Source of the DNA: a virus
Lineage: Duplodnaviria > Heunggongvirae > Uroviricota > Caudoviricetes
Virus record (IMG/VR): IMGVR_UViG_2563367158_000001
Length of the DNA stretch: 35,389 nucleotides
Direction: 5' to 3' (one strand)
Below, piece after piece: positions 1,459 to 13,400 of the stretch. Position numbers and translations under genes: made by a program. Under the pieces are notes generated by a model. It was given only the letters and a program-made list of their open reading frames with translations, did no database searches and was not told where the DNA came from. Numbering within the stretch: the stretch's first letter is position 1; each line of letters starts with the position of its first letter.

Positions 1459-2622
1459 TTACACATCATTAGTACCTTCCTTATTTCTTGACTGGGACAA
1501 ATTTGGGACCGATGGGTTCAGAATCGAGTCTATTTGCCGTGCGTGTTCGGTAAGGTGATTAGGTGCGAGGTGAGCATATCGACGAACCATTTCGATAGAC
1601 TCCCAGCCTCCCATTTCCTGTAACACTGATAACGGGACTCCGGCTTGAACCAGCCAACTTGCCCAGGTGTGTCTCAAGTCGTGAAATCTGAAATCATCAA
1701 TACCTGCTCGTCTCAGCGCCGCTTTCCAGGCTGTGTTTGCGTCATACCGCATCTTCCTGACTGTTGGCGCTTTCGTTCCGTCTGGTTTGGTACAGCTTTC
1801 CTTATACACAAATACCCAACGGTGATGATTCCCGATTTGTTTTTTCAATACGCGACATGCAGTATCATTCAGCGCAACGCCAATTGCGCGGTTTGATTTA
1901 CTCTCTTCCGGGTTTATCCATGCCACCCGGCGCTGCATGTCTATTTGTTGCCATTCAAGGTTGATGATGTTCGAGCGTCTTAAGCCTGTTGCAAGTGCAA
2001 ATTCAACAACAGACTTTAATGGCTCCGGACATTCATCAATCAGCCTTTGTGCTTCATGAGGCTCCAGCCAGCGGATCCGTTTATTCTTTGGTTGAGGCAC
2101 TTTAATAATTGGTGCCTTATCCAGCATTTTCCATTCACGCTCTGCGGCTCTTAGCAGGGCCTTTATAAATGAAAGATGCGTAGCCTTCGTTGCAACGGAC
2201 GCTGGTTTTGGCGTGTATTCTGGAACAGGTTTCCCTTTTTTTCTGCATGCTTCTGCCCTGAGTTTCCAGTTTTCCTCATGACGCCGGTTCGTCATTTTCT
2301 GCATTGCTGAATAAATTTTTGATTCAGTAATGTCTCTTAGTTGCATTCCTGCGAAATGTTGAAGCCAGAATCCGATCCGGCTTTTGTCATCGTCCAGTGA
2401 TTTTTTATGTGCTTTCTCTTCAAGCCACCTGACACACGCTTCCTCGAACGTTATATCAGGAATTTCACCAAGTTTGCTGACCCGCCATGCTTCAGCCTTT
2501 AGCTTGTCATGGAGTTCTGTCGCCTGCCTTTTGTCCTTTGTTCCAAGAGACTGTTTAAATCTTTTACCGTTCGGCAATGTGAAACTGGCGTACCATATTT
2601 CACCTCTGCGGAAGAGTGACAT
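1459..2622 (-). CDS. int: phage integrase, tyrosine recombinase (P22-type)
   Basis: 387-aa ORF; N-terminus [22 protein letters not shown] and C-terminal [10 protein letters not shown]...RY catalytic region typical of P22-family integrases; adjacent to tRNA. Confidence 0.92.
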
Positions 2623-3154: not shown

Positions 3155-3516
3155 TATGCTCCAGCCTCCGGTGCTTTTGGCATTACTGCCCAGTGAGTGA
3201 TATTGACGTTTTCAAGGTCCCCGACCTGAAATGTCCACTGCCAGTCTCCGGTTTCTTTTTGTCCCCAGGTGTACCAGAGAGAACGCCAGCCAATTAGCCA
3301 GCCTTCTCCGTTAGCATCGAATAACAAAACACTTTCATTTGCTGGTGGCAGTTCAGTTGACACTGGTATTACTTTGTTTTCCAGTGCCGCACATTTAGCT
3401 TCAAGCGCATCGAATTTACGCACCAGGTATTCAGCATCCGTTTCATTCACTTTCAGATCTCGCGGTACACATTTCCCGCGAAGAAACCCTTCCATTTCGA
3501 AAACATTCATGCGCAT
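3154..3516 (-). CDS. DUF551-like phage protein
   Basis: 120-aa ORF with Trp-rich core and C-terminal THWAVMPKAPE resembling the DUF551 signature; operon context. Confidence 0.55.
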   Translation of the reverse strand: MRMNVFEMEGFLRGKCVPRDLKVNETDAEYLVRKFDALEAKCAALENKVIPVSTELPPANESVLLFDANGEGWLIGWRSLWYTWGQKETGDWQWTFQVGDLENVNITHWAVMPKAPEAGA

Positions 3517-4043
3517 TTGCGTAACTCCGATAACTCGTTAAAACGTTCCATAAACATCCCGTAGGCATGGCCTGGCGACAGTGGAATAACTTTGAACATC
3601 TCTGTTGCTGGGATACCTTCCAGTAGAGGCCAGAAAGAGCCATCATCAAGCCCGAGATCGCGGCGTTCGGTTGCCAGCATGATGAGATCGGCATATTTCA
3701 CGGGCGTGCTCATAACCGGGGGTAACCCGTATTTCTCACGGATTACGGCGTCTATTTTTTCTTCCATCCGTTTATAGTCAGGAAGAAGGCGTTTCAGTTG
3801 CGCGGGGATGTCCTGACAATACGCTTCTGTTGCATCATGCATTAACGCTTCAAAGGCGAACTCTGGCGCCACAAGTTGACTGCACAGAACGGAATGCTGC
3901 GCCACGCTGTAAAAATCCGGCAAGTGTCCCGCGAAGCGGCAGATATTTGAAAGCGCACCGGCGATATCCTCGATATAAATATCGTCAATGGTGGAGTTGA
4001 TATAATTGAACTTCTTACCGGTAAGAGTCTGGATAAAACTCAT
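3507..4043 (-). CDS. HD-domain phosphohydrolase (5'-deoxynucleotidase-like)
   Basis: 178-aa ORF with H...HD metal-binding motif (AQHSV ... MHDATEAY) characteristic of the HD superfamily; AGGAG-like RBS upstream. Confidence 0.75.
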   Translation of the reverse strand: MSFIQTLTGKKFNYINSTIDDIYIEDIAGALSNICRFAGHLPDFYSVAQHSVLCSQLVAPEFAFEALMHDATEAYCQDIPAQLKRLLPDYKRMEEKIDAVIREKYGLPPVMSTPVKYADLIMLATERRDLGLDDGSFWPLLEGIPATEMFKVIPLSPGHAYGMFMERFNELSELRKCA

Positions 4044-4200
4044 CGTTAGTTCTCCTTAATTGGTGCGCTGCACCGCACGATTTTTGGTTGCACGAATCCC
4101 TCGCCATAAGGCGATTAAAAGTTTTGGTTTCGTTTCAGTAAATGCCCCATCCAGAGGCACTTAGTGCAACGGGCGGCTGCCATCGCCAGTTATTTTCCCC

Positions 4201-4285
4201 ACTCAATTGAAAGCGCGTTCCGGAGGTTTTGGACTTAACGAACTGGCACTTAATGACAAGGGACAGAACGCGCTTTCAGTTGAGT
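4201..4285. repeat. inverted repeat: 20-bp arms (19/20 complementary) separated by 45 bp
   Basis: ACTCAATTGAAAGCGCGTTC (4201-4220) and GAACGCGCTTTCAGTTGAGT (4266-4285) are reverse complements with one mismatch; lies in a 420-bp non-coding gap. Confidence 0.6.
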
Positions 4286-4433
4286 AAAAAGGTGGCTATT
4301 CATCAGAACATTGTCGCCTTCATTAGGTTTATCTGTTGAAGATCTGTAAGCCGCTTATAAATAAGTAGATATAAGATATTAGGAAAAGAAGAAGGACGTT
4401 ATAGTTTTATTTGTGATGTGCAAAGTATATTTG

Positions 4434-4456
4434 AATAAAACCCGCCCAGCGGGTTC
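4434..4456 (-). terminator. rho-independent terminator downstream of the membrane-protein gene
   Basis: Minus-strand hairpin CCCGC-TGG-GCGGG followed by a U-tract (plus strand AATAAAACCCGCCCAGCGGGTT), 10 nt after the stop of 4466..5062. Confidence 0.6.
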
Positions 4457-4465
4457 TAAAGTGTT

Positions 4466-5062
4466 TTAATGATTGTCGTAATAATTAATTGGCTCATCAT
4501 TTTTTTGGTCTGGCATAGTTATGGACCACTTTATATTCTTTAGGCTGTTATGTTTTTTATTGACCTTAAGCTCTCTCTTTGCTTCAGAGATAATATCGTC
4601 TAGTAATACTTTTAATTTATCAAGTCTTGACTTGTGGGCATCTATCAACTCTATACTATCAAACTCCCATTGTATAAATAGATTTTCTTCATTTTCAATG
4701 AATGAACGGATTTTATCCCCACACTCTTCTGTTAAGAATAATGAAGATAGCTCACCTATTCTACTGAGTTTTTCAAGCTCATTAGAGAAAGATTTGCTAA
4801 GGATTTCATTTTCTTCTTTTGATTTGTAACTAAAGTAGGTTGGGAATTGTGAAGCGTGATGTAACTCATGTTTATACCAATAGTCAGCTGTGTTTTTTAG
4901 AAGATAAACACAGTCAACTAATTGCGTATACAAATCTATTCTTTTGTCCCACCATTTTTCTTTATAATAACGGCCGAGTGCATATCGCGCAGTTAAGTAA
5001 GCTGCGATTGAGCCTGTAACAAGTCCGATAATTACCTTTGATATAAGGTCATGCCAATCCAT
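4466..5062 (-). CDS. hypothetical single-pass membrane protein in an AT-rich insertion; candidate exclusion or abortive-infection factor
   Basis: 198-aa ORF; N-terminal hydrophobic helix (IIGLVTGSIAAYLTARYAL) then an aromatic- and Lys/Glu-rich domain; about 30% GC by eye; own terminator; AT-rich leader upstream. Confidence 0.7.
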   Translation of the reverse strand: MDWHDLISKVIIGLVTGSIAAYLTARYALGRYYKEKWWDKRIDLYTQLVDCVYLLKNTADYWYKHELHHASQFPTYFSYKSKEENEILSKSFSNELEKLSRIGELSSLFLTEECGDKIRSFIENEENLFIQWEFDSIELIDAHKSRLDKLKVLLDDIISEAKRELKVNKKHNSLKNIKWSITMPDQKNDEPINYYDNH

Positions 5063-5479
5063 TTTTATTTTTCCTACATTATGTTATATAATTGTTCATA
5101 TCATACAATTGTTGAGTATAGATGTCTCGTTATTCATCAACATTTACTCCTGTTAAATTAGGGGGAGTATGTATTAAAAATATTCATCTGGGTCGTCTAA
5201 ATATTTTTGATAAACTAATAGCAATAACACTATCAATATTGCCTGCCCTCACGTCGTTCTTGCTCTCGCGCGATTTTTAACTAAACACTAGCAGGATTTA
5301 TCATGGTGCTACGCTACATTTACTTGTAGGGAGCTAAACAGATCATTGACGCTGAAAATATTCAAATTGTTAAAGAGCGAAGCGTCCTATGGGCGTTTTG
5401 TTGCTAACGAATCATCTTGGACTTCATATGCCCCAGGCGGCTACTTCGTGGACGTCCTGCCTGTTTGTTGTTTCTCTTG

Positions 5480-5513
5480 GGTACATTATGTATCTCAAAG
5501 GTACATTGTCAAG
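5480..5513. promoter_or_regulatory. OL-like operator repeats (two GGTACA sites 20 bp apart)
   Basis: GGTACATTATGTAT and GGTACATTGTCAAG resemble GGTACATATTGTAT and the TGTACC/GGTACA palindromes in the cI-cro intergenic region. Confidence 0.4.
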
Positions 5514-5514
5514 T

Positions 5515-5540
5515 ATAAAAAAACCTGCCGAAGCAGGTTC
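5515..5540 (-). terminator. rho-independent terminator after cI
   Basis: Minus-strand hairpin AACCTGC-TTCG-GCAGGTT followed by a run of T (plus strand AAAAAAACCTGCCGAAGCAGGTT), immediately after the cI stop. Confidence 0.65.
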
Positions 5541-5551
5541 ATAAACATTGA

Positions 5552-6226
5552 TTAGGCTTTGATTTTGTATCTTCTTGGTTTTCCTGAGAAAATCACTGTA
5601 CCAATTATAGAGCAATTACCGTTGATCTTAATGTAAGGCTCAGGCCAGTTTGGGTTTAACGCTTTGAGATAACGCTGTGTCCCATCTTCTATCAACCTTT
5701 TGAAGGTGGTTTCACCTGTATCGTGCATCAATGCAATAACGTCGTCACCGTGGCAGGCAGGTACTTCAGGATCGACAAAAATCATGTCTCCCGGGCGGTA
5801 CTCATCAATCATTGAATCACCTATCACCCGCAAGATATAAGTCATTTCCCCACAGGGGACAGGGCAGGGATACGTTTCTGCTGTGCTCAAATCAACCTCA
5901 GAATATCCAACTTCTTTCCATGCTCCGGCCTGTACCCATGATATGACAGGGACTAATGTGATTTGTTTATTAGTGATTGAAACATCAGGTTTTTTTGTGA
6001 TGTTCGTTGTCTGGTGTTCTTGATCGAGCCATCCGACAGGCAGGTCGAAACATTTTTCGATGTGTCGTGCCATGCTGTCACCGATATTTTTAGTAGCACC
6101 ATCTCCCATAAACCTGCTGGTCTGGGTTGGCTCGCGATCAATCATAGTGGCAAAGGAAGAATTCCCGCCAACACCATCTCTCAGTTTTCTGGCGTTAGAC
6201 CGCCGGATGTCATGGATTGTTTTCAT
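5552..6226 (-). CDS. cI: CI-type prophage repressor (HTH plus S24 LexA-like peptidase domain)
   Basis: 224-aa ORF; C-terminal GDSM...DGD...K region typical of self-cleaving S24 repressors; divergent to cro. Confidence 0.9.
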   Translation of the reverse strand: MKTIHDIRRSNARKLRDGVGGNSSFATMIDREPTQTSRFMGDGATKNIGDSMARHIEKCFDLPVGWLDQEHQTTNITKKPDVSITNKQITLVPVISWVQAGAWKEVGYSEVDLSTAETYPCPVPCGEMTYILRVIGDSMIDEYRPGDMIFVDPEVPACHGDDVIALMHDTGETTFKRLIEDGTQRYLKALNPNWPEPYIKINGNCSIIGTVIFSGKPRRYKIKA

Positions 6227-6241
6227 AACGAAATTAAAACC

Positions 6242-6316
6242 CTTGTACCGTTAAGGTACAAGTATCTTGAAGGTTCATTTCAATCATGTAATATGTACAT
6301 CGGAGGTACATATTGT
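6242..6316. promoter_or_regulatory. OR operator / PR-PRM region
   Basis: 8-bp inverted arms CTTGTACC/GGTACAAG with a 5-bp spacer (6242-6262), a second TGTACA-N5-GGTACA pair 50 bp downstream, and a sigma70-like PR (TTGAAG-N16-TAATAT, 6267-6294) before the cro RBS GGAGG. Confidence 0.6.
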
Positions 6317-6517
6317 ATGAAAGCGTATTGGGACTCTTTAACCAAAGAACAGCAGGGCGAGTTGGCCGGAAAAGTTGGCTCAACACCTGGCTACTTACGG
6401 CTGGTTTTCAATGGCTATAAAAAAGCCAGTTTTGTGCTGGCTAAAAAACTTGAGCAATGCACGTCAGGTGCAATTACGAAATCTGACTTAAGACCGGATA
6501 TCTATCCGAAAGATTAG
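6317..6517 (+). CDS. cro: Cro-like repressor
   Basis: 66-aa product from the ATG 10 nt after GGAGG (internal start of ORF 6014..6517); small basic HTH-like protein divergent from cI. Confidence 0.7.
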   Translation: MKAYWDSLTKEQQGELAGKVGSTPGYLRLVFNGYKKASFVLAKKLEQCTSGAITKSDLRPDIYPKD

Positions 6518-7462: not shown

Positions 7463-8404
7463 ATGAGCACTAAATTAACCGGCTATGTATGGGATGGTTG
7501 CGCTGCGTCAGGCATGAAATTATCCAGCGTGGCAATTATGGCCCGCCTGGCTGATTTCAGTAATGACGAAGGTGTGTGCTGGCCATCAATTGAAACCATT
7601 GCCCGTCAGATTGGCGCGGGGATGAGTACCGTCAGAACGGCTATCGCACGGCTGGAAGCAGAAGGCTGGTTAACGCGTAAGGCGCGTCGCCAGGGTAACC
7701 GCAATGCGTCGAATGTTTATCAGCTTAACGTTGCGAAGCTTCAGGCAGCGGCATTTTCTCAACTGTCAGATTCTGACCCGTCAAAATCTGACGCATCAAA
7801 ATCTGACCCGTCAAAATTTGATGCGTCGAAATCTGGCAAAAAAGCGGGTTTTCACCCGTCAGAATCTGGCGGGGATCCGTCAGTAAAATCAAAACATGAT
7901 CCGTCAGATAAAAAAACTTCTCGTCCGGACGCTTCGCAACCGGACACGCAGACGGCTGAACAGGAGTTTTTAACTCGCCATCCTGATGCGGTTGTATTCA
8001 GCCCTAAAAAGCGCCAGTGGGGAACGCAGGATGATTTGACCTGCGCACAGTGGCTCTGGAAAAAAATCATCGCCCTGTACGAGCAGGCCGCCGAATGTGA
8101 CGGCGAGGTGGTTCGTCCCAAAGAACCGAACTGGACAGCCTGGGCAAACGAAATTCGCCTGATGTGTGTGCAGGATGGTCGTACTCACAAACAAATCTGC
8201 GAGATGTACAGCCGCGTCAGCCGCGATCCGTTCTGGTGCCGTAACGTGCTCAGCCCGTCGAAGCTGCGGGAAAAATGGGATGAGCTTTCCCTGCGCTTAT
8301 CGCCGTCCGTCAGCACGTACACCGAAAAACGCGAAGACCCGTACTTCAAAGCCAGTTACGACAACGTGGACTACAGCCAGATCCCGGCAGGATTCAGGGG
8401 GTGA
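7463..8404 (+). CDS. replication initiation protein (N-terminal winged HTH, O-like), ori within gene
   Basis: 313-aa ORF; N-terminal HTH (SIETIARQIGAGMSTVRTAIARLEAEGWL); central low-complexity linker encoded by tandem DNA iterons. Confidence 0.75.
   Translation: MSTKLTGYVWDGCAASGMKLSSVAIMARLADFSNDEGVCWPSIETIARQIGAGMSTVRTAIARLEAEGWLTRKARRQGNRNASNVYQLNVAKLQAAAFSQLSDSDPSKSDASKSDPSKFDASKSGKKAGFHPSESGGDPSVKSKHDPSDKKTSRPDASQPDTQTAEQEFLTRHPDAVVFSPKKRQWGTQDDLTCAQWLWKKIIALYEQAAECDGEVVRPKEPNWTAWANEIRLMCVQDGRTHKQICEMYSRVSRDPFWCRNVLSPSKLREKWDELSLRLSPSVSTYTEKREDPYFKASYDNVDYSQIPAGFRG
7763..7837 (+). repeat. origin-like iterons: five tandem 15-bp repeats, consensus about CCGTCAAAATCTGAC
   Basis: Directly tandem copies at 7763, 7778, 7793, 7808 and 7823; three further degenerate CCGTCAG copies to 7914, then an A-rich tract; analogous to lambda ori inside O. 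Confidence 0.65.
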
Positions 8405-8895
8405 TCATGAGTCTTTTGAATGAAGTTCAGAAATACATTGAAGCCCATCCGGGGTGTACTTCCGGAGACATTGCGGATGCTTTTGCAGGTTACTCACGGC
8501 AGCGCGTTCTGCAGTCAGCAAGCAAGTTACGTCAGAGTGGTCGTGTGGCTCACCGTTGTGAAGGGGATACACGCAGACATTTCCCGCGCCTGACTGAGAG
8601 AGCGCAGGAGGCGGAACCGCAACCAGTTCGTGAAACCAGACCTGTGCGCAATTTCTATGTCGGCACTAACGACCCGCGGGAGATTTTGTGCCTGACCCGC
8701 CAGGCGGAAGAACTGGAGTCCAGGGGCTTATACCGTCGTGCTGCAACGGTGTGGATGGCGGCATTCCGTGAAAGCCACTCCCAGCAAGAGCGAAACAATT
8801 TTCTGGCGCGTCGTGAGCGGTGCTTACGGAAAAGCAGCAAGCGCGCTGCATCGGGTGAAGAGTGGTATCTGTCAGGGAATTACGTGGGGGCTTAA
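8401..8895 (+). CDS. PerC-family transcriptional activator homologue
   Basis: 164-aa ORF with the motif AEELESRGLYRRAATVWMAA resembling the PerC/Pch signature. Confidence 0.55.
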   Translation: MIMSLLNEVQKYIEAHPGCTSGDIADAFAGYSRQRVLQSASKLRQSGRVAHRCEGDTRRHFPRLTERAQEAEPQPVRETRPVRNFYVGTNDPREILCLTRQAEELESRGLYRRAATVWMAAFRESHSQQERNNFLARRERCLRKSSKRAASGEEWYLSGNYVGA

Positions 8896-12084: not shown

Positions 12085-12837
12085 ATGAACCTTGAAGCCT
12101 TACCGAAATATTACTCCCCGAAATCTCCAAAACTGAGCGATGACGCACCGGCGACAGGCTCTGGTGGTTTAACGATTACGGATGTGATGGCTGCGCAGGG
12201 GATGGTGCAGTCGAAAGCACCGCTTGGGTTTGCCTTATTCCTGGCAAAAGTTGGTGTTCAGGATCCTCAGTTTGCGATTGAAGGTCTGCTCAATTACGCG
12301 ATGGCACTGGATAACCCGACATTGAATAAATTGAGTGAAGAAACCCGGCTACAGATCATTCCTTACCTTGTGAATTTTGCCTTTGCTGATTATTCCAGGT
12401 CTGCGGCAAGTAAGGCTCGCTGTGAGCATTGTGCTGGTACTGGATTTCATAATGTATTGCGCGAGGTGGTGAAACACTCCAGAAGCGGGGAATCTGTTAT
12501 CAAGGAAGAGTGGGTGAAGGAACTATGTCAGCATTGTCATGGTAAGGGAGAAGTCAGCACAGCGTGCAGAGGGTGTAAGGGTAAAGGTATTGTCCTGGAT
12601 GAAAAAAGGACCCGGCTTCATGGCACGCCTGTTTATAAGATTTGTGGGCGTTGCAATGGAAACCGGTTTAGCCGTTTACCAACTACACTGGCACGACGTC
12701 ATGTCCAGAAGCTGGTTCCAGACCTGACTGATTATCAGTGGTACAAAGGATATGCAGACGTAATTGATAAACTAGTAACAAAGTGCTGGCAGGAAGAAGC
12801 ATATGCTGAAACGCAATTGAGAAAGGTGACGAGATAA
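12085..12837 (+). CDS. late-gene antitermination protein Q
   Basis: 250-aa ORF with CxxC zinc-binding motifs (CEHCAGTG, CQHCHGKG, CRGCKGKG, CGRCNGN); directly upstream of a terminator and the lysis cassette. Confidence 0.7.
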   Translation: MNLEALPKYYSPKSPKLSDDAPATGSGGLTITDVMAAQGMVQSKAPLGFALFLAKVGVQDPQFAIEGLLNYAMALDNPTLNKLSEETRLQIIPYLVNFAFADYSRSAASKARCEHCAGTGFHNVLREVVKHSRSGESVIKEEWVKELCQHCHGKGEVSTACRGCKGKGIVLDEKRTRLHGTPVYKICGRCNGNRFSRLPTTLARRHVQKLVPDLTDYQWYKGYADVIDKLVTKCWQEEAYAETQLRKVTR

Positions 12838-12944
12838 GTGATTTTCGCCGAAGATGGCGACATGAAGCTTGCATTTTTCAAAAAATATGGATAAGATTTT
12901 CTCAACGATGGGCTTTGTATGTCTGCCGTTGATAATTTTCACGA

Positions 12945-12970
12945 ACCCGCTGTTGAGCGGGTTTTTATTT
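12945..12970 (+). terminator. tR'-like intrinsic terminator downstream of Q
   Basis: ACCCGC-TGTTGA-GCGGGT hairpin followed by TTTTTATTT. Confidence 0.6.
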
Positions 12971-13022
12971 ACTTGTACTGAAACACATTATATAACCTCA
13001 TATCAGTTAAAAAGGAGGTTGT

Positions 13023-13358
13023 ATGATTAATGCCGTTGAGTACAGATTACCGTTAGGAAATATCTCTCCAGAGAATCTTGACGCGTTGTCAGAGCTTATC
13101 GTTAAGCATTCCGATAAATTTAATAACTATGTACTTAGTTCTATTTCTGATGATGATATTCGATATTCTTACGATTACTACAATTTTGAAATCACAGAGA
13201 TAGATGAATATGGGTTTCACTTTATAGCACCATATAGCTATTATGAAGGATGCGTTGACAATAACTTCTCAGGAGAGGTTGAAGGTTATGCAGAATACGA
13301 AATCATTGATAATGAATTAGTCTTCTCTCTTGAGGAACTACCTTGGGATGTAAAATAA
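13023..13358 (+). CDS. hypothetical small acidic protein (AT-rich insertion between Q and holin)
   Basis: 111-aa ORF, very Asp/Glu/Tyr-rich; strong RBS AAGGAGGTTGTATG; about 33% GC by eye; followed by its own terminator. Confidence 0.6.
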   Translation: MINAVEYRLPLGNISPENLDALSELIVKHSDKFNNYVLSSISDDDIRYSYDYYNFEITEIDEYGFHFIAPYSYYEGCVDNNFSGEVEGYAEYEIIDNELVFSLEELPWDVK

Positions 13359-13366
13359 ATATCAAT

Positions 13367-13400
13367 AATAAAGGCCGTAACGAACGGCCTTTATTATTAT
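13367..13400 (+). terminator. rho-independent terminator
   Basis: Perfect 11-bp stem AATAAAGGCCG / CGGCCTTTATT with a 7-nt loop, followed by ATTAT. Confidence 0.65.

Follow-up and report, generated by a model that had tools for sequence, protein, structure and literature searches.

The 35,389-nt viral DNA IMGVR_UViG_2563367158_000001 (Caudoviricetes), the full length of which is called the window here, carries next to its cI-type repressor gene a conspicuously AT-rich island with a single open reading frame (ORF), and the locus raises the question of what kind of element this island is, which place in the early-left region it occupies and what its product might do. A preliminary description, made from the sequence, had taken it for a foreign transcription unit encoding a membrane protein at the position of the lambdoid exclusion genes rexAB and sieB. 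Our analysis showed that a predicted promoter, a Shine-Dalgarno sequence, one gene and a terminator form a mobile moron cassette within the early-left leader of a prophage of the SfV/e14 type, whose immunity region is near-identical to that of Shigella phage SfV and of the Escherichia coli e14/ymfK type. The gene, located on the minus strand at 4466..5062, begins with ATG and encodes 198 amino acids (aa), as had been described.

The island (4293-5357) had a GC content of 33.5%, compared with 47% for the early-left genes and 52.5% for region 6227-35389 (window mean, 51%). It was the lowest-GC stretch of its length (1,065 bp) in the window (z = -3.1), and the next lowest non-overlapping stretch had 38.9%, in agreement with the AT-rich insertion of about 1 kb reported before. 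Megablast comparison with 5,426 complete E. coli genomes placed the boundaries at about 4292 and about 5358. The island was found in 16 of these genomes at 99.8-100% identity, clinical and enterotoxigenic E. coli (ETEC)-type isolates being among the carriers, and about 1,500 genomes contained one or both flanks without it. The island is sporadic among otherwise near-identical prophages and is therefore dispensable. In one of the 16 genomes, that of E. coli ECONIH4 (locus L005), an ISSpu7-family transposase was observed in the early-left region (3409-5019) with a degraded second integrase adjoining; this prophage copy is decaying, with the cassette intact. Part of the 3' tail of the island (4293..4429, minus strand) aligned with the cassette copy of Raoultella. 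On the left the slot is bordered by a conserved non-coding flank (4065..4292, minus strand), which lies directly upstream of the first early-left gene and is about 91% identical in other E. coli genomes with a different repressor, such as TST3, in which it likewise stands ahead of the first early-left gene. The minus-strand RNA of this flank contains a hairpin of about 25 pairs (4196-4290; fold z = -3.4) without a T-run, which might be an RNase III site or another processing or termination element.

The gene is equipped with signals of its own. The promoter scan detected a sigma-70-like promoter, GAGACA-17-TATGAT (5100..5128, minus strand; 9/12 match to the consensus), with 37 nt between the end of its -10 element and the ATG, and a Shine-Dalgarno sequence, AGGA, can be read at 5072..5075 (minus strand), 9 nt upstream of the ATG. 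The motif (G/A)AGACA-17-TAT(G/A)(A/G)T recurred, equally far from the ATG, in four leaders that have diverged and differ in the intervening sequence, including those of Raoultella L009 (10/12), L011 and L012/L013. Across 31 non-redundant loci of the family, the best promoter-like score between -28 and -48 averaged 7.6, compared with 5.8 for shuffles, and 11 of the 31 loci scored at least 9/12. The gene is followed by an intrinsic terminator (4430..4457, minus strand), AACCCGC-UGG-GCGGGUU then UUAUUCAAA, whose hairpin at 4434-4456 precedes UUAUU and folds at -13.6 kcal/mol (z = -3.2). Among about 45 phage loci, many had a hairpin of the AACCCGC...GCGGGTT type with a T-run behind the stop codon, including those encoding proteins only about 30% identical, and the same stem type was seen 3' of the stop in Raoultella, in L016 and in loci of the CobraSix group. 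GC content was 0.29-0.42 in the gene and 0.41-0.57 in the flanks in nearly all of these about 45 loci. These comparisons supported both the terminator and the foreign, autonomous, single-gene character that had been proposed for the island.

To the right of the island, the cI gene (5552..6226, minus strand; YmfK/SfV cI-like, Peptidase_S24, PF00717 with E = 1.5e-26) forms the edge of the variable slot and is annotated as a LexA-family protein or ymfK in identical E. coli loci. The terminator scan located the intrinsic terminator of cI at 5521..5540 (minus strand), GAACCTGC-TTCG-GCAGGTT followed by a T-run; a terminator is annotated at the corresponding site of SfV, where the aligned sequence is invariant. 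Beyond it, the best promoter match in the region, TTGACA-16-CATAAT (5512..5485 within 5480..5512, minus strand; 11/12 in the promoter scan), overlaps a 19-bp operator-like palindrome, ATGTACC-TTTGA-GATACAT (5488-5506), with an extra GGTACAT half-site at 5480-5486. These half-sites match the right-operator (OR) palindromes of the cI/cro operator region (6242-6262 and 6296-6314), and the promoter together with the next ~70 nt is invariant in SfV, PhiR29_1 and E. coli strain 504239, suggesting that TTGACA-16-CATAAT is the cI-repressed early-left promoter PL. Both the cI terminator and the GGTACA-type half-sites named in the preliminary description were therefore found in place.

The leader had been described as an AT-rich stretch of about 400 bp. 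Its length was about right (some 420 nt from the PL-like -10 element at 5485 to the ATG at 5062), but it is not anonymous sequence, because 5190..5378 (minus strand) was identified by a boxA match and an alignment with phi80 as a diverged phi80-type nutL. An exact rrn-type boxA, GCTCTTTAACAA, lies at 5367-5378 (minus strand), about 110 nt downstream of the PL-like promoter. About 170 nt past boxA are conserved in other loci, including the nutL core hairpin CTACA-AGTAAA-TGTAG (5314-5329), which survives changes on both sides of its stem; beside boxA and this hairpin, the element contains some 120 nt of conserved sequence. A pattern built from the nutL stretch matched 98 viral contigs, and BLAST with the canonical version matched phi80 and many Stx2a phages; no family for the element was found in Rfam. 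In phi80 the matching stretch bears the annotations nutL boxA and nutL core, and gene N comes next, with the terminators tL1A and tL1B behind it; relative to this phi80 element, the copy in the window is AT-shifted and diverged. Most of the AT-rich leader is thus phi80-type nutL, phage backbone rather than cargo. Since the gene lies beyond the PL-like promoter and nutL, the cassette occupies the position of phi80 gene N and not the rexAB-like position assigned to it earlier, rexAB being located between cI and the left operator (OL)/PL. The leader RNA was also considered as a regulator of the cassette, such as a type III antitoxin-like RNA or a riboswitch, and this candidate was rejected: the RNA is nutL, which is present without the gene in phi80 and about 100 phages. 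Just upstream of boxA, at 5379-5400 (plus strand), we noticed the remnant of a hairpin and T-run (AAGCGTCC...GGGCG TTTTGTT). Its intact form ends an opposite-strand cargo gene in PhiR29_1 and strain 504239, which suggests that an earlier cargo of opposite orientation was replaced.

The slot between cI and the early-left genes was hypervariable among related prophages and was occupied by unrelated cargo in either orientation. In SfV this cargo is orf33, whereas PhiR29_1 encodes a 242-aa protein there, strain 504239 one of 171 aa and TST3 a BRCT protein. Two of ten neighbouring cargo proteins matched defence-candidate models of PADLOC (PDC-S48 and PDC-S42). In 107 loci with a phi80-type nutL, the first downstream ORFs fell into about 40 sequence clusters; the island gene's family, phrog_17948, took this place in 16 of the 107, and phi80-type N or many unrelated ORFs did so elsewhere. 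The stretch from the phi80-type nutL to the first conserved early-left gene looks like a cargo hotspot, which could be mined systematically like the P2 and P4 hotspots. The slot downstream of the prophage repressor is a known home of defence genes, lambda rexAB being one case. The bstA gene of BTP1 provides an example of a defence gene downstream of a prophage repressor (PMC8585504), and the annotated record of lactococcal sie2009 provides another.

The ORF list, the match to phrog_17948 and the family alignments identified the product as a predicted bitopic inner-membrane protein. The ratio of nonsynonymous to synonymous substitution rates (dN/dS) was 0.15-0.17 against three homologues, and the ORF is therefore a real gene under purifying selection. 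A single hydrophobic segment was found at residues 6-26 (Kyte-Doolittle 1.7), with no second one in the protein, and aromatic residues make up 12.6% of the sequence. In 71 of 71 relatives the 19 residues after this helix were more positive than the N-terminal tail (mean +2.2 vs -1.0), so that the positive-inside rule predicts an N-out/C-in topology for all of them. The single N-terminal transmembrane (TM) helix and the aromatic-rich cytoplasmic domain recognized at first reading are in line with these results. A small residue (G, A or S) occupies position 13 in 61, position 17 in 71 and position 21 in 65 of the 71 sequences, and this helix-packing face suggests self-association. The juxtamembrane motif, ALGRYYKEKWWDKR in the query, corresponds to the strongest motif of the family, AL.RFY.EKWWEK(K/R), in which W38 is invariant. 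An AlphaFold2 model built with 48 sequences (predicted local distance difference test score 79.8, predicted template-modelling score 0.65) contained a long helix, residues 3-70, in which the TM segment runs into the bundle, and helices 82-109, 112-133 and 139-167, which complete a four-helix bundle. The predicted cytoplasmic bundle extends to about residue 167, the last helix ends in AKK.LK, and the tail (171-198) is disordered in the model.

The protein had been called unassignable to any family, and profile searches of Pfam, NCBIfam, PADLOC and PDB-sequence families indeed returned no match for the query or for the 71 relatives. In PHROGs, the query belonged to phrog_17948, a family of unknown function, its residues 1-185 covering all 185 positions of the profile (E = 6.1e-95). 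When 1.84 billion cluster representatives were searched with a profile, 376 clusters (50% identity) were retrieved at E <= 1e-3, nearly all of them single-domain proteins of about 150-200 aa with some fragments. By comparison, a word-indexed search returned no more than 10 close relatives, from Citrobacter, Raoultella and E. coli, and a pattern scan of species-representative genomes only two relatives. In temperate phages the family was located at three positions, after cI, before xis/int and within the head operon, and it shared the orientation of its neighbours in every case. In about 60 loci of phages and prophages the gene stood a short way past cI (490-1,800 bp) or shortly ahead of xis/int (about 360 bp), invariably co-oriented with the upstream S24 repressor gene and the downstream integrase gene. 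In the head-morphogenesis group the order was terminase, portal, head morphogenesis, the family gene, phrog_760, decoration and capsid. These proteins (loci L061-L075, for example L062 at 7956-8471) are about 24% identical to the query; the head-operon copy matches phrog_17948 at E = 1e-30 and has a TTGGAA-16-TATCAT motif of its own, 33 nt ahead of its start codon. Distant relatives were encoded in very different bacteria, including one genome of the candidate phyla radiation (Microgenomates), and some of about 155 aa lay outside recognisable phages. Within 6 kb of these non-phage copies we found genes for Shedu SduA, type I and MmeI-like restriction-modification systems, an Mrr-type nuclease and a weak PycTM match, as well as transposases and integrases. 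No conserved partner gene or antisense unit travelled with the family in the loci compared. The three unrelated genome positions argue against a function tied to one operon and, together with the sporadic presence, the foreign composition and the autonomous signals, they argue for an accessory function.

We then compared the cassette with known systems. As in the moron concept developed for HK97 and HK022, with lambda bor and lom and HK97 gp15 as further examples, a single extra gene of lower GC with its own predicted promoter and terminator is present or absent between similar phages and appears at several genome positions; the cassette protein differs in having no sequence relationship to any characterised moron product. 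HK97 gp15 is reportedly a moron product of the inner membrane that blocks DNA entry. Lambda and P22 SieB and lambda RexAB likewise involve a small membrane protein encoded near cI/PL and the protection of lysogens that is postulated here. Yet rexAB, situated between cI and OL/PL, is transcribed together with cI, whereas the island gene lies beyond PL and nutL and has no RexA-like partner in the island, and lambda sieB is annotated on the strand opposite to PL. Sie2009 is also encoded by a single gene between repressor and integrase and has about 170-200 aa with one N-terminal TM helix, but its basic N-terminus (N-in) and non-helical extracellular C-terminal part contrast with the predicted N-out topology and cytoplasmic helical bundle of the island protein. 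Remote-homology comparison of the family profile with the named exclusion proteins gave hhalign probabilities below 1% throughout. Kinship with SieB (PF14163) was rejected, as Pfam gave no match at E <= 1 and hhalign only 0.1% against lambda SieB. RexB was rejected at 0.5%, the island protein having a single TM helix, no second gene beside it in the island and a position beyond PL, and Sie2009 at 0.9%, with an opposite charge distribution and a helical cytoplasmic part. Two further comparisons concern the N position itself. In HK022, nun occupies the post-PL position that lambda uses for N, and Nun is a soluble RNA-binding transcription terminator; the likeness is limited to a lysogen-protecting or accessory gene at this position, since the island product is a membrane protein and the upstream RNA is a phi80-type nutL, not put. 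Compared with the nutL-N-tL1 arrangement of phi80, the leader aligns in boxA, the core hairpin and the 3' conserved part, and a terminator follows the gene as tL1A follows N, but N is replaced by the unrelated membrane-protein gene with its own predicted promoter.

What the product does is proposed here as a best guess, which draws on its architecture, its mobility and the neighbouring genes, and on analogy with rexAB, bstA, sie2009 and HK97 gp15. We infer that the cassette gene would be transcribed from its own promoter in the lysogen and, given that it is always co-oriented with the early-left operon, it may also be transcribed by read-through from PL after induction or infection. At the inner membrane, on its cytoplasmic face, the protein might then protect the cell or the resident phage from superinfecting phages, a reading to which we assign a probability of roughly 0.45. 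It might interfere with genome entry (superinfection exclusion). Alternatively, a phage product might be sensed by the bundle, and the TM helices would then form an oligomer that damages the membrane (abortive infection). Of the two models, abortive infection is favoured only slightly, because nearly the whole protein is predicted to be cytoplasmic and the packing face is conserved. The defence and mobile-element genes near the non-phage relatives point to a protective role as well. A stronger proposal is that the protein is the first to be recognised in a large, so far unannotated family of anti-phage proteins, each encoded by a single gene and anchored in the membrane. The family, with at least 376 clusters from enterobacterial prophages to Microgenomates and carried as a moron at no fewer than three positions, would combine a four-helix-bundle sensor with an oligomerising TM helix; we put this proposal forward tentatively and find it somewhat doubtful. 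If the protein does exclude or abort phages, a compact single-gene family would be added to the defence repertoire, one that is common in enterobacterial temperate phages, is distantly represented in many other bacteria and is currently invisible to Pfam, NCBIfam and PADLOC; apart from that, the locus is ordinary phage mosaicism and is not mechanistically surprising.

Several observations weigh against a defence role. Sie proteins characterised as blockers of injection usually have a domain exposed beyond the cytoplasm, whereas almost the whole cassette protein is predicted to be cytoplasmic. The predicted fold is generic, as structural searches returned generic helical bundles and no informative match. 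With PADLOC-DB 2.0 the query had no hits, and the 71 relatives had only scattered, inconsistent ones at E >= 7e-4. Literature searches found no paper mentioning WP_001764244 and no study of the family. The defence-neighbour evidence comes from about seven contexts without a background control, and the cassette promoter is a consensus match only. In addition, the gene is tightly packed in the early-left operon of several phages, for example CobraSix, where it resembles an ordinary operon member, and its invariable co-orientation with the flanking operon also fits a gene for the phage's own use.

This last point leads to the main rival explanation, according to which the gene is an early accessory gene of the phage's own cycle and its product a PL-made membrane adaptor that modulates a process at the host inner membrane, with FtsH proteolysis, cell division, the timing of lysis and the machinery of entry or exit as examples. 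Lambda cIII and Kil, which modulate host processes, may serve as models. The co-orientation with the direction from cI/PL to int in all of the about 60 phage loci, the tight early-left packing in the CobraSix and OS31 groups, the location between an N-position ORF and cIII in L016 and the placement directly downstream of the PL-like promoter and nutL in the window all agree with such a role. It is harder to reconcile with the copies in a late head-gene operon and, outside phages, beside restriction-modification and Shedu genes, with the sporadic and hence dispensable presence among near-identical prophages, and with the gene's own predicted promoter and terminator and its foreign composition, and we regard this role as rather unlikely. 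Less likely again is a lysogenic-conversion or fitness factor, that is, an inner-membrane protein altering envelope physiology, stress tolerance or colonisation. Lambda bor and lom are the morons cited as models, and the moron anatomy, the occurrence in clinical and ETEC-type isolates and the lack of a defence-family signature in the PADLOC search would fit. Profile searches, however, found no similarity to known virulence or stress families, the distant relatives in very different bacteria, including Microgenomates, speak against a host-niche-specific role, and the non-phage copies adjoin defence and mobile-element genes, not envelope genes.

Two further explanations concern the TM helix and the nutL context. 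A membrane toxin or addiction element, which would act through its TM helix to stabilise the prophage or to kill cells in particular circumstances and would be accompanied by an undetected antitoxin or an RNA regulator in the leader, might be read from the conserved small-residue packing face, from the long structured leader and from residues 3-26, which resemble the Ldr type I toxin below the threshold (E = 0.27). This match (PF13940) reached 11.8 bits against a cut-off of 27 and covers the hydrophobic helix only, the structured leader is nutL and is common to phages without the gene, and no conserved partner gene or antisense unit was found; moreover, its 198 aa and folded cytoplasmic domain set the protein apart from type I toxins. 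This explanation is quite improbable. A functional replacement for the antiterminator N was judged very unlikely and was rejected. The position relative to boxA and the nutL core is identical to that of phi80 N, and tblastn with three queries (phi80 N, lambda N and SfV orf33) revealed no homologue in the window, a search that cannot exclude a non-homologous N analogue; no similarity between SfV orf33 and phi80 N was found. A membrane-anchored helical bundle without an arginine-rich RNA-binding motif is hardly an N protein, though, and the same family also occurs ahead of xis/int and within head operons, sites that lack nut. PhiR29_1, too, has no N-like gene according to its annotation and to tblastn with the three N-type queries. 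Protection against other phages at the inner membrane is kept as the best guess for the cassette.

The remainder of the window contains some flanking sequence with a tRNA gene and the other genes of the prophage. The 3' end of proA stands at the start of the window, and tRNA-Thr(CGT) (1369-1444) lies directly ahead of the prophage. The integrase gene (1459-2622, minus strand) is followed, in this order, by a xis-like gene, a YfdT-like gene and a DUF551 gene, and a gene for an HD/YfdR-type 5'-deoxynucleotidase (3507-4043, minus strand) adjoins the island. On the other side of cI, cro (6318-6517, plus strand) is followed by ymfL and ymfM and then by the replication, Q-like, lysis and structural genes. 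At the start of cro, ACTCTTTAACCA (6333-6344, plus strand) resembles boxA with two mismatches and may be a nutR remnant or a chance match; five boxA-like sequences with two mismatches were found in the window, compared with 2.7 expected. A replication-initiator-like ORF (7463-8404, 313 aa) contains DPSKSDASKS-type peptide repeats and the corresponding DNA repeats at 7700-7890, which gave a spurious Rfam match to mir-5880 and may be origin iterons in an O-like gene. Finally, the second-lowest-GC patch of the window (12870-13400, about 39% GC) carries a 111-aa ORF (13023-13358, plus strand), which has the Q-like gene (12085-12837) on one side and the holin/lysozyme genes on the other; this slot between Q and the lysis genes is the site of toxin morons in Stx phages.

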